A stretch of DNA of 63,305 nucleotides, counting the filler, from Octopus bimaculoides (lineage: Eukaryota): assembly GCF_001194135.2 (NCBI RefSeq). It is 5 parts of 5 records of this genome, joined end to end, with 100 filler letters (N's around TTAATTAATTAA, not from the genome) between each part and the next. Parts side by side here need not be neighbours in the genome. Positions count along the whole stretch, not along the records: positions 1 to 28,158 come from NC_068985.1; positions 28,259 to 35,886 come from NC_068998.1; positions 35,987 to 47,484 come from NC_068981.1; positions 47,585 to 60,627 come from NC_068983.1; 1 more part is not named here. One strand, 5' to 3'. Of this stretch, positions 9,536 through 48,800 are shown piece by piece (within the stretch, counting starts at the first letter, position 1; the number at the start of each line of letters is the position of its first letter). The position numbers and the translations under genes were made by a program. The notes beneath the pieces were generated by a model that saw only the letters and a list, made by a program, of their open reading frames with translations, was not told where the DNA came from and did no database searches.

Positions 9536-9631
9536 TAAGGGTGGTGACAGAGTTTCGGCCAGGTGGCTTTTATCGGACTGTCCAATGAAGCCGAGCAGGC
9601 TGAAACTTCGAAGTCGCTATCACTACTCTTA
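9536..9631. repeat. Head-to-head inverted pair of degenerate hammerhead-like units
   Basis: Plus: CCAATGA-AGCC(gagca)GGCT-GAAAC-TTCGAA-GTC. Minus: CCGATAA-AAGCC(acct)GGCC-GAAAC-TCT-GTC. They meet at the centre ggac-t-gtcc; outer arms taagggtggtga / tcactactctta. Confidence 0.5.
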
Positions 9632-10409
9632 CTCTAAAAGTATTCTATAAAAAGTATTTAGTAACACTTCAGTTTAATGTAAGATTGTTTTTATCGTAAC
9701 TCGACATAAAAAACAAATATTGCCTCAAAAGAGCTGCAGTCTAATGACCGGGTTTGGTCATGTCATGCAGATGGATGCCGACAGCTCCATTGACCTAGGA
9801 GGACATGGGATGATGTAGTGAATCTATCTCTCTCTCTCTCTCTCTCTCTCTCTCTATATATATATATATATATATATATATACGAACACACACACGTTGG
9901 TCAGCGGTGAGTTGAAATTAAACTGCCGGATTCTAGAAATACAATACTGACCAAGTAATAAACCAGATATATTAATGAATTAATTAAAAGAAATAAACTT
10001 TGAAGCGTAAGGATATTCGTTACAGATATGGAGATATTTACGAATAAAGATTATTATTATTGTCATTGAGAAACGCTTTTAAAAACACTTGTTCTAGATT
10101 TCGTCGTCGTTTGTTTAACATGAATGTCTTTTTTATTTTTTATCTTGTTCAAATCCTAACAAATCGTAAAGCTGTCACCGTGAGATAGTATTAGGTGTTT
10201 AACATAAACAAACTTATCAAAACTATTCCAATAGGCTATTGGGAATAGAATAAAGCGGTAATTGAAGAGGACAACATGGAGTGAGGTGTGTGTGTGTGTG
10301 TGTAGAAAACGGGTGTTGTTGTTGTTAAGTATTGGCTTCAAATCAGTCCTGATAAAGCAAAACTATAAAAGCTACATTAAGGTAATTCAGGCCATGAAAA
10401 TCCCAGTAG

Positions 10410-10850
10410 GATCGTTAGCACGCCGGACAAAACGCTTAGCGGTATTTCGTCCGTCTTTACGTTCTGAGTTCAAATTCCGCCGAGGTCGACTTTACCCTTT
10501 CATCCTTTCGGGGTCGATAAATTAAGTACCACTGAAACATTGGGGGGGAGGGGGTCCGATACAATCGACATAATCTTCTCCCCCAAGCTGCCCTTGTGGC
10601 AAAAATTTGAAATCATTATAATTATTAATATTGATATTATTATTATTATTATCATCATTATTATTATTATTAGCGCGCCGGACAAAATGCTTAGCGGTAT
10701 TTCTCTCATTGCTACGTTCTGAGTTCAAATTCCGCCGAGGTCGACTTTGCCTTTCATCCTTTCGGGGTTGATAAATTAAGTACCAGTTGCGCACTTGGGT
10801 CGATGTAATCGACTTAATCTCTCCCCAAAATTGTTGCCCATGTGGCAAAA
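10410..10850 (+). mobile_element. Two tandem SINE family B copies (Nin-domain-like core)
   Basis: B-box gagttcaaattcc and core gcctttcatcctttcggggtcgataaattaagtaccag, which resembles the Nin SINE domain. Separated by (TTA)n. Confidence 0.8.
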
Positions 10851-11274
10851 TNNNNNNNNNNNNNNNNNNNNNNNNNNNNNNNNNNNNNNNNNNNNNNNNN
10901 NNNNNNNNNNNNNNNNNNNNNNNNNNNNNNNNNNNNNNNNNNNNNNNNNNNNNNNNNNNNNNNNNNNNNNNNNNNNNNNNNNNNNNNNNNNNNNNNNNNN
11001 NNNNNNNNNNNNNNNNNNNNNNNNNNNNNNNNNNNNNNNNNNNNNNNNNNNNNNNNNNNNNNNNNNNNNNNNNNNNNNNNNNNNNNNNNNNNNNNNNNNN
11101 NNNNNNNNNNNNNNNNNNNNNNNNNNNNNNNNNNNNNNNNNNNNNNNNNNNNNNNNNNNNNNNNNNNNNNNNNNNNNNNNNNNNNNNNNNNNNNNNNNNN
11201 NNNNNNNNNNNNNNNNNNNNNNNNNNNATATTAGTTTACGTTATTCATTATTCGGATGAGATTAGATTTCTTTT

Positions 11275-11485
11275 CTACTCTAGGAACAAGACCAGAAATT
11301 TCGGGAGAGGGGGGGGGCAATTGATTAGATCGACCCAGTACGCAACTGGTACCTAATTTATCGACCCCGAAAGGATGAAAGACAAAGTCGACATCGGAGG
11401 AATTTGAACTCAGAACGTAAAGGCAGACGAAATACCGCTGAGCATTTCGCCAGGTGTGCTAACGATTCTGCCAGCTCGCCGCTTT
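11275..11485 (-). mobile_element. SINE family B
   Basis: Complete reverse copy ending ctgccagctcgcc. Confidence 0.8.
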
Positions 11486-45487: not shown

Positions 45488-45534
45488 ACTTACAGCTGTT
45501 TCAGGGATATAAGGGATATCTCTCCTTCACAGAC
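45488..45534 (-). ncRNA. Degenerate hammerhead motif, inverted partner of 45841-45886
   Basis: Minus strand TCTGTGA-AGGAGAG..CCCT-GAAAC-AGCT-GTA-AG: GUA and the palindromic ACAGCTGT stem III are intact, but the core lacks A6. Confidence 0.5.
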
Positions 45535-45840
45535 GATATGAGAGAGTTAAATAGAAGGAAATAGTAAAGTTCAATATAAGACGTTATTGTGGAAAGGGAG
45601 AGATATAGGAAGTATAAAGGAAAAAACAAGAATACAAATAAACATATATGTTGGATGTTACTGTTTCAGTTCTATTATCAAAGGAAAGTGATTAGATAAT
45701 TGAACTGCAACGGTAACATCTAACATATAATTTCATTTTCATTCTCTTATTTCCACTTATACTTCCTATTTCGCTCACTTTCCAAAATAACTTCCAATAT
45801 TGAACTGTAATATTTCCCTCTATTTAACTTTCTCATATCG

Positions 45841-45886
45841 TCTCTGATGAAGGGTCATCCCTCATATCCCTGAAACAGCTGCAAGA
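45841..45886 (+). ncRNA. Minimal type-I hammerhead ribozyme motif (cleavage triplet mutated)
   Basis: TCT-CTGATGA-AGGG..CCCT-GAAAC-AGCT-GCA-AGA: stem I TCT/AGA, intact core, stem II AGGG/CCCT, near-palindromic stem III. GCA replaces GUH. Confidence 0.65.
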
Positions 45887-48800
45887 ATACCTCTCTCTTT
45901 ATAAATGTCCTAGAAATTTCACACTACCTTGGCTTTGTTGTCTCATTTTATTTAACATATATATGCTCACACACGACCCGCAATAGACTTCTTATTCATA
46001 CTATTATTGAACCGGGAGTCTAACTACGGTCCTTCCGTAGCACTTACATAGCCTTACTTGCTATTTTGGGTCTTCTGGATACCAAACACCTCTCTCTCTC
46101 TCTCTCTCTCTTACACACACACACACACACACACACACACACACACACACACACACACACACANNNNNNNNNNNNNNNNNNNNNNNNNNNNNNNNNNNNN
46201 NNNNNNNNNNNNNNNNNNNNNNNNNNNNNNNNNNNNNNNNNNNNNNNNNNNNNNNNNNNNNNNNNNNNNNNNNNNNNNNNNNNNNNNNNNNNNNNNNNNN
46301 NNNNNNNNNNNNNNNNNNNNNNNNNNNNNNNNNNNNNNNNNNNNNNNNNNNNNNNNNNNNNNNNNNNNNNNNNNNNNNNNNNNNNNNNNNNNNNNNNNNN
46401 AGACTCAATTTCTCCACAAAAAAACAACAAACAATAAAGAAAACTTTAGTAACCCCAGTTTCCGAAACCGCAACAACAAATCACTATACAAACACCTGTG
46501 CGGACGTGACCCACCTCTAGTCAATTGAAATTTTACAAACACCAGTAGCTGACGTCACCTAAATCCAGACCAATCAAAACCGAACTTCAGCAAATACAAC
46601 GAAATGACCCTTTATGAGAACCAACCAGCTGGAACGACTGATGACCGTTTCCACAGGGAAGCCAACCAAGCAGAACGACAAGCTTGACCACTAAAAAAAT
46701 CACCAGTATTTTAACGAATCAAAAATCAGATTCGCTCGCGGAAAACAATTATAAATACATCTGATCCCAAAACATACCACTAAAAGCGAAAGCGTCTACG
46801 GAAAGAGGATCAGAGAAAATGTAAACCAAATTCCTTATTTTACAATTTTCATTTCTCCTTTGTTTTTTCCTTCTTAACTCAGTATGACTTGTCGATCATC
46901 ACTGACATTAATGAACTTTGTACATTCAAACAAATTGATATACAGTTTTAACATTATTGACTGTTATGAACATTCAAACTTGCACCTGTCCTCCTATTTC
47001 ATAATGCTAAATTGATCTGTTTTGAACATGTTAATTTGTGAACATTAAAACATTTTAATTTGTCAACACTGAAAATTTTAAAGATGTTTTTCTAATTCAT
47101 AATTTTCAATTTTTACCATTTATAAACAAAAATATTGCTATTTAGGCAGTGTGTATGCATGCATGTATGTATATATGTATGTATGTATGTATGTATGTAT
47201 GTATATGCATGCATGTATGTATGTATGTATGTATGTATGTATGTATGTATGTATGTATGTATGTACGTATGGGTCATTGAATAACTGCAAATGCCCTCTC
47301 TCCTTCTCTGCCTATTTATCTGTCAGTCTGTCTGTCTGTCTGTCTATCTTTATATATATGTTTGATCGATTGGTTGATTGATTGAGAGCTGAATGCATGT
47401 ATGTATACTGACATACATAGACACACGCGCATATACATATATATATATGTATATATGTATATATATATATATATATATATATATNNNNNNNNNNNNNNNN
47501 NNNNNNNNNNNNNNNNNNNNNNNNNNNNTTAATTAATTAANNNNNNNNNNNNNNNNNNNNNNNNNNNNNNNNNNNNNNNNNNNNTATATATATATATATA
47601 TATATATATATGTGCATGTATGTGTTTGTATATATATATATTGTACACCTAGGCACTTTGTAGAATAAATGGTAGTATGATTGTATAGCAACTGACAGGT
47701 AAATGTTTCAAATCCAAACCCATCTTTTCCACCTGTGGATGGCACATTGGATGAAATAACTTGTAGATTTGATTGCATTTCATCCTTTCAAGGTAGTGTT
47801 GTTGATATAATCATGTACACATTAAAATATTCTGCTTCACCAAGGTGTGCATATGCATATATATCTATATCTATATATATATTTATATATATATATATAT
47901 ATATATACATACATATATATATTTATGCACATATATATATATATATATATACATACACACACATATGTCTAATGTATGTATGCATATGAATATAATATGT
48001 AAATATATTATCATCATCACCAATTTACATCACTCTCCTTGTGGGCATGGGCTGGATAGATCTGCTCACCTTGATGGATCAAGAAGACCTCGTCTCTCTC
48101 ACATCATTGCTGGATGCCCTTGTACACCACTTCAACCAGTGCTTTAGTACTCACTCAAGGGTGAATGTACACACTCTCTTTATAAGCTTTTGTATTCTCT
48201 CTGCCCCACCCAACTCTCTTTCTCTGGTTACTGTTAATAGTTACATTCCCTTACTGCACTTTTATCTGTATCCTGCTCTGTTCTATAACAAATGACCCTA
48301 TTTTCTGCAATATGAAACAGCCTGTTTGTAATAAATATGTATTCTTGTTGGTAATATATAGGCAATGATCTGACAGCGTTCTTAGATGTTTGGACAAAAT
48401 GCTTAGAGGAAACTCTCCCAACACTTTGGGTTCTGAGTTTAAAACCTGCCAATGTTCACTTTGCCTTTCATTCTTTCAGGGTCCCCTTTCCCTCAAAATT
48501 GCTAGCTTTCAACCCTGCAAAAGACCCGTATCCCATTCAGAGGGAATGTTGTGATCTTGGTAACTTACACACCATGGAAACCGGGTAGCTGGCCCCATGA
48601 ATCATAGGGCTGAAGAAATACAAAAAAAACAAAAAAAACAAAAGAACAAATCATTAACTATACATTCAGATTCAGGACAGTCATGTGTATATATAAAGTG
48701 AAGCAATATTGTGGACTTTGCCTACACCAGCATATGACTGGTACACAGTTTCCACACTGGTTGTACGAAATGAAAAATATAAACCAGAATGCCAAGAGAC

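Follow-up and report, generated by a model that had tools for sequence, protein, structure and literature searches.

A stretch of 63,305 nucleotides from Octopus bimaculoides (NCBI RefSeq assembly GCF_001194135.2), called the window below and made of five parts joined end to end with 100 filler letters between neighbours, holds five sites, at 9.6, 13.7, 20.9, 22.9 and 45.7 kb, for which a sequence-only reading had proposed one shared architecture: a minimal type-I hammerhead ribozyme motif paired with an inverted copy of its own unit. These sites are probably decayed, 5′-truncated insertions of the hammerhead-bearing pseudo-long terminal repeat (pLTR) ends of several Penelope-like element (PLE) families, the mirror half having been made during each insertion. 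By analogy with published elements, the architecture is likely the one already reported for ordinary PLE insertions and not the mark of a new element class. The sequence-only reading had gone further and suggested that short, palindromic, non-autonomous elements producing double-stranded RNA (dsRNA) and self-cleaving RNA form a class of their own. That step is unsupported because inverted 5′-truncated copies and opposite-strand hammerhead pairs have already been described for PLEs; moreover, arm length and centre vary, and every arm is damaged.

Hammerhead-like motifs and their inverted partners

The motifs and motif remnants at the five sites are as follows.

9582–9615, plus strand: hammerhead-like motif of the 9.6 kb site; core CCAATGA (A in place of G5), stem II, palindromic stem III ACTTCGAAGT, GUC at 9613–9615
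9548–9576, minus strand: mirror motif of the 9.6 kb site; core CCGATAA (A in place of G8); the cleavage site is absent, as are 9 nt of stem III
13662–13692, plus strand: hammerhead-like motif of the 13.7 kb site; intact core CTGAAGA, stem II closed at its base by a U-U pair, GUC at 13690–13692
20904–21040, minus strand: half motif GAAACAGCTGTA (20927–20938) of the 20.9 kb site, together with a degenerate inverted copy of the sequence that follows it; a doubtful member
22898–22975, plus strand: hammerhead-bearing arm of the 22.9 kb site; stem I, core CCGACGA (22906–22912), stem II, ACTC-T-GAGT, GUA at 22933–22935; ends in (TA)n
45844–45883, plus strand: hammerhead-like motif at 45.8 kb; core CTGATGA intact, stem II of 4 bp, cleavage triplet GCA with C in place of U16.1
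45491–45532, minus strand: mirror motif at 45.5 kb; core without A6, ACAGCTGT palindrome and GUA retained

A relaxed type-I hammerhead descriptor was run on the window with 300 block shuffles as control. It matched 16 times, and four matches (at 9582, 13662, 22906 and 45844) scored 9 or more, against a shuffle mean of 0.11. Four such matches were reached in 0 of the 300 shuffles, a significance somewhat overstated because the descriptor was written after the loci had been seen. At a score of 5 or more there was no excess over the shuffles (6 vs. 4.69). The half motif, consisting of GAAAC, a perfect palindrome and H, occurs 7 times in the window vs. 0.85 in shuffles. The claim of five minimal type-I hammerhead-like motifs is borne out at four sites, and the 20.9 kb site lacks the core: the descriptor gave no match there, and neither arm contains a core box within one mismatch. 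Judged by its letters, this site may still be a truncated remnant, because half motifs are so much commoner than in shuffles. Half motifs without a core were also seen at 13045 (minus), 48314 (plus) and 54736–54749 (minus), by eye with no clear fold-back partner; the last has 14 letters in common with the 9.6 kb unit.

Type-I membership was judged by the core C-U-G-A-N-G-A, GAAA and a cleavage triplet NUH in type-I order. Core, GAAA and GUH are retained together in two of the ten arms, namely the plus arm at 13.7 kb and the plus arm at 22.9 kb, the latter complete with C4, and stem II is weakened in both (2 bp at 22.9 kb). The self-complementary or nearly self-complementary stem III noted earlier was confirmed, being a perfect palindrome at 9.6 kb plus, 20.9 kb minus, 22.9 kb plus and 45.5 kb minus, with a single mismatch at 13.7 kb plus and 45.8 kb plus. 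Stems I and II are partly pairable in the locus copies, and the majority or common letters of the 22.9 kb family restore the pairing. After A9, the motifs at 9.6 and 45.8 kb have an A followed by a G; position 11.1, however, is T in the plus arms. Isolated motifs fold no better than shuffles (z from −0.18 to 0.50), as expected, because minimal motifs are unstable. Hammerhead cleavage requires G5, A6 and G8. The motif at 9582–9615 is predicted to be dead, and from the letters at hand the ribozyme is predicted to be inactive in the octopus locus copies generally. An Rfam scan (256 matches up to E 5) gave no hammerhead among the 150 matches listed, which are microsatellite matches to microRNA-type models. 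With four clear cases in about 57 kb of called sequence, octopus DNA would be dense in hammerhead-bearing PLE stumps.

The inverted partners belong to the following units; no strand is given where a feature spans both arms.

9536–9631: fold-back unit 1; head-to-head arms, joined inside the 5′ strand of stem I at a 4-bp palindrome whose loop is 1 nt (9575–9583)
13610–13719: fold-back unit 2; plus arm from stem I, minus arm (13610–13656) from within stem II
22818–22900, minus strand: 3′ portion of the 22.9 kb unit, with its end, in inverted orientation; adjoins a microsatellite; joints 22895/22896 to 22963/22964, on opposite strands
22728–23052: TA-flanked host element with 49-bp terminal inverted repeats (TIRs; 22728–22776 and 23004–23052); encloses the 22.9 kb insertion and is not part of the hammerhead unit
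45453–45921: fold-back unit 5; two arms of 230 nt with 83% complementarity, separated by 9 nt; folding z −29.7
45927–45956, plus strand: one-sided unpaired 30-nt extension resembling a PLE-type tail; the only tail seen among the five loci

An inverted 5′-truncated copy lies at the 5′ end of the units at 9.6, 13.7, 22.9 and 45.7 kb. The arms are asymmetric at the first three of these, and arms, centres and truncation points differ at each locus, which makes five geometries at five loci. At 13.7 kb, the two arms are truncated at different points because one starts at stem I and the other within stem II, and the minus arm keeps only the half from GUGAAA onward. The minus arm at 22.9 kb (22818–22900) has no motif; in family contigs, the loose ends of the unit fall at 22901 and 22821. 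No tandem array lies over any hammerhead unit, and within the window there is no direct second copy of a whole unit. The arms at 45.7 kb contain no recognisable PLE frame. A 7-bp AT-rich, low-complexity direct repeat (45442–45448 and 45959–45965) is a weak candidate for a target duplication there.

Alignment scores for an upstream inverted partner were compared with those of 2000 random anchors (95th percentile 23). The scores at 9.6, 13.7, 20.9, 22.9 and 45.7 kb are 23, 30, 30, 18 and 96, so that three of the five exceed the percentile and one equals it. Among SINE-like (short interspersed nuclear element) repeats used as a control, 3 of 33 reach a score of 30, against three of the five loci, which had been chosen for having a partner. 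Folding z-scores are −3.95/−4.50 at 9.6 kb, −4.09/−6.58 at 13.7 kb, −3.68 at 20.9 kb and −0.52 at 22.9 kb, where this copy of the unit forms only a 15-bp helix. In the predicted folds of the four long hairpins, the remaining core letters pair with the opposite arm and the core is buried. The proposal that every motif has an inverted partner holds in part: the four motif-bearing sites carry an inverted partial copy, the partner at 20.9 kb is degenerate, and the conspicuous repeat at 22.9 kb turned out to be the TIR pair of the host element. The observation that the primary sequences differ between loci proved correct. Beyond the motif the five units lack mutual similarity, the best cross-locus score being 26 against self scores of 106–262.

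A hairpin at 29221–29324 (z −6.05) has hammerhead-like letters in both arms without a valid stem II, and is possibly a sixth, more decayed unit. Inverted repeats without a hammerhead core occur at 12649–12758, 16204–16428, 26374–26455 and 59505–59599; by its sequence the last appears to be two SINE ends placed tail to tail.

Miniature inverted-repeat transposable elements (MITEs) are defined by paired TIRs and a family-specific target duplication. The octopus units share with them that they are short, non-coding and palindromic, and could be imagined as DNA-transposon MITEs or plain hairpins with an incidental hammerhead look. The strongest inverted repeat at 22.9 kb is indeed a TIR pair, hairpins without a valid core exist elsewhere in the window (12649–12758, 29221–29324 and 59505–59599), and Rfam lists no hammerhead among the 150 matches. 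Yet the motif lies far above the shuffles, the variation within the 22.9 kb family tracks the hammerhead fold, and the unequal arms, the one-sided tail and the lack of a fixed TIR pair are unlike MITE anatomy. Equal paired TIRs with a family-specific target duplication are found only in the host element 22728–23052, which fits the MITE kind and which we take to be Tc1/mariner-like by its TA and CAGT ends; the hammerhead units do not show this combination. This explanation is highly improbable overall, and for the 22.9 kb family it is largely refuted.

The repeat family behind the 22.9 kb site

Contigs of four sequencing runs were aligned on 22816–22976, and only those at least 80% alike were kept. 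Two are DNA runs from two organisms (X1 and X7), and two (X15 and X20) are guessed to be RNA, since none of the runs that contain the unit is recorded as RNA. The unit is represented by 6074 and 5502 contigs in the two DNA runs and by 94 and 353 contigs in the two probable RNA runs. Its motif had no match in either the viral or the metagenome contigs searched. In X1, the summed depth over the motif is about 1.0–1.2 million vs. 21–58 for the single contigs listed, which suggests a copy number of the order of 10^4, a rough figure since depth is no copy number.

At 22915, G accounts for 91% and 90% of the depth in the two DNA runs; with it, stem II is 3 bp long again and has a GGAA loop. Where 22940 is T, as in 54% (X1) and 25% (X7), stem I reaches 8 bp. 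About 95% of depth has C at position 4, and the majority letters otherwise give a complete core and GUA. Within 22923–22934, a single variable site is listed, and it is the unpaired letter at the centre of the palindromic stem III. The sequence-only reading had suggested that family consensuses lacking a complete core and GUH would speak against it; for the 22.9 kb family, with only similar contigs sampled, the majority letters contain both, with C4. According to passages of PMC3088659, the U4C change lowers activity in vitro, yet is sufficient in vivo for a viroid.

The opposite-strand joints and loose ends of the family identify 22818–22900 as the unit's own 3′ continuation in inverted orientation, with its end abutting (AT)n. 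Upstream of stem I, 137–202 contigs per listed place in each DNA run continue into mixed sequence. Agreement among these continuations is 0.48–0.50, against 0.68–0.82 for continuations inside the 22.9 kb unit.

Two observations concern the probable RNA runs. At 22935, the A of the cleavage site is G in 3.1% of depth in X20 vs. 0.12% in the DNA run X7, which has the same organism code; the figure is 6.7% in X15, for which there is no matching DNA. This change could be adenosine-to-inosine (A-to-I) editing, on the basis of 7–10 contigs from different individuals. Within 22816–22976, the depth of the hammerhead half is about 8–10 times below that of the tail half in both probable RNA runs; in DNA, it is 1.9 times below in X7 and above in X1. 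The imbalance is only a hint, as contig depth cannot rank the parts of a unit.

The presence of the family in the two probable RNA runs and the stable hairpins predicted at four loci would also suit loci retained by the host as functional RNAs, forming dsRNA hairpins and cleaving themselves. The RNA contigs, however, represent the family and not these loci; no accumulation of molecule ends was listed among them, although contigs cannot show ends. The arms at 45.7 kb have drifted to 83% complementarity, and the core, stem and cleavage site are altered at positions that a functional ribozyme could not afford to lose. With damage so placed, a host function is very hard to credit.

An unrelated hammerhead family offers a comparison. 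A degenerate motif search of metagenome contigs gave at least 111 loci, 31 of them with 300-base flanks only, and 20 of these at least 111 loci form one animal-like repeat family by flank similarity. Among the matches listed, an upstream inverted partner accompanies 6 of the 20 members and a direct copy accompanies 5, and 9 show neither in the flanks examined, so one family yields solo, tandem and fold-back forms. The part of the unit that is inverted and its position differ in all six fold-backs, so their centres differ too. An inverted partner was found in 0 of the 91 other metagenome matches listed, a group that includes L052, which is below threshold though family-like by eye. Loci L001, L011, L031, L032, L039, L043, L068, L073, L075, L087 and L094 were recorded as members of a hammerhead family with solo, direct tandem and fold-back copies.

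Penelope-like insertions as a model

Passages of PMC8557442 describe insertions of endonuclease-containing (EN+) PLEs as heavily 5′-truncated, with an inverted 5′-truncated copy at the 5′ end, a tail of 30–40 bp at one end and a bias towards microsatellites. In the relevant parts of PMC3846280, both the 5′ ends of pLTRs and the inverted junctions are described as having palindromes, which are interpreted as self-priming. The octopus loci resemble EN+ PLE insertions (Penelope/Poseidon and Neptune in these same excerpts of PMC8557442 and PMC3846280) in their unequal head-to-head arms, junction palindrome, one-sided 30-nt tail and AT-rich or microsatellite sites. They differ in having no attached open reading frame and in being short and decayed.

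The motifs themselves have a counterpart in the minimal type-I hammerheads of metazoan PLEs. As far as the text drawn from PMC4209133 goes, most such motifs are single, truncated PLE remnants, some lie 100–700 bp apart on opposite strands, genomes hold many hammerhead families, and cleavage is low even for dimers. Type-I order, palindromic stem III, the multiplicity of unrelated families, and the mostly solitary occurrence with some opposite-strand pairs are common to both. The 22.9 kb family departs from them in its C4, an A-U pair at 10.1–11.1, a 3-bp stem II and the lack of a bulged base. Animal non-LTR (long terminal repeat) retrozymes, in the portions of PMC7229834 and bioRxiv 10.64898/2026.07.22.740005 used here, are likewise non-coding, carry a type-I hammerhead and are tied to PLE pLTRs. 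Retrozymes, however, are head-to-tail tandems that give circular RNA, while the octopus loci are inverted, not tandem, and their motifs are minimal and damaged. A section of PMC13282606 reports Penelope families as present and recently active in O. vulgaris. No description of these octopus families was found in the literature searched, which included few subscription journals; the supplements of PMC4209133 and PMC13282606 may list matches.

If the sites are decayed PLE insertions, the PLE protein, with its GIY-YIG nuclease and reverse transcriptase (RT), would nick AT-rich or microsatellite DNA, and RT copying of uncleaved element RNA would begin near the 3′ tail. Copying would stop early, and fold-back or a template switch at a short palindrome near stem I would give the head-to-head arms. 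Parts of PMC11167929 state that RT initiates inside the RNA at the tail, that targets are AT-rich and that uncleaved RNA is the main substrate, the last of which would account for inserted copies keeping the whole motif. The copies would then decay neutrally. The ribozyme would be relevant only in the tandem parent RNA, probably acting as a dimer through the palindromic stem III.

The earlier proposal of a derivation from PLEs stands as far as anatomy goes, which fits pLTRs with minimal type-I hammerheads, and in the 22.9 kb family a full core and GUA emerge from the majority letters; the link to an RT was not found. Several points weigh against our preferred reading. Within the window, no RT or nuclease frame is attached to any of the five loci. 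The closest thing to one is a GIY-YIG-like remnant frame at 56615–56860 (plus strand), which sits 11 kb from the nearest locus by window coordinates and is unlinked to it. It has a YIGQT motif and is 56% like protein P0007, the one relevant HMMER match of 4 (21.6 bits vs. a GIY-YIG cut-off of 22.6). A homologue search with this frame gave nothing and a direct Pfam search gave no family; from its sequence it is likely a PLE endonuclease fragment. No convincing target duplication was found at the loci. Three loci begin at or within stem I, which is tighter than random truncation predicts, and the 22.9 kb family has neither a bulged base after A9 nor a G10.1–C11.1 pair. The metagenome comparison family is not from octopus, and its PLE identity is not established. 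One of the five families was sampled, through short contigs in which each unique flank makes its own contig, inflating junction diversity; because unique flanks are over-represented, the contigs give no measure of how many copies have a fixed centre. Lastly, a stretch of 13 nt just upstream of stem I is shared by the loose-end consensuses of three of the four runs (X1, X7 and X20) and can form a short palindrome with stem I; a single fixed palindrome may therefore be the starting point of many copies.

The recurring 13 nt lead to another possibility, namely that the 22.9 kb family, if no other, represents a short non-autonomous element in its own right, with a master RNA of about 160–350 nt and a fixed palindromic centre, copied whole in trans by PLE proteins, so that the hairpin is inherited. 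Copies of the order of 10^4 by the rough depth estimate in X1 and a defined 3′ end at (AT)n would suit such an element, and non-autonomous PLE derivatives are on record in passages of PMC8557442 and bioRxiv 10.64898/2026.07.22.740005. Beyond the 13 nt, however, the upstream consensus is mixed, and a 5′ palindrome is itself a known pLTR feature (PMC3846280, in part). The five loci have five geometries, and a perfect hairpin RNA would, by the predicted folds, bury its own ribozyme. On balance a dedicated element is unlikely. A bolder version is more doubtful still: the family would be a hammerhead-bearing non-autonomous PLE derivative, again with copies of the order of 10^4, whose fixed 5′ palindrome primes fold-back at every insertion, whose hairpins are A-to-I substrates, and whose ribozyme is switched off by editing at the A of the cleavage site. 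If that were true, the family would seed the octopus genome with long hairpins serving as A-to-I editing substrates.

For the reading as decayed PLE insertions, the present value lies in repeat annotation; such stumps are unlisted among the Rfam rows shown. The formation of inverted PLE junctions is still described as unresolved in excerpts of PMC8557442, and a high-copy family with thousands of junctions is therefore good material for mapping fold-back points. More interesting would be an element with a fixed centre, or a link with RNA editing; neither is shown.

Other features of the window

The window contains one host gene match, listed here with remnants of other mobile elements.

49863–55318, minus strand: cytochrome P450 27C1-like gene; four matched exons, running from 55318 down to 49863
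53736–54734, plus strand: broken mariner transposase with Pfam HTH_48 and Transposase_1
52082–52432, plus strand: zf-RVT-like frame, a mobile-element remnant; Pfam match below cut-off
38405–38794, minus strand: frame like the C-terminal region of a non-LTR element, a mobile-element remnant; no Pfam match
33238–33522, minus strand: hAT dimerisation-like frame, a mobile-element remnant; Pfam match below cut-off

The exon at 51855–52019 of the P450 gene matches proteins from two Octopus species with 100% identity over 91% of the query. By window coordinates, all five loci lie 3′ of the last matched exon of this gene. SINE-like repeats and microsatellites are abundant throughout the window.

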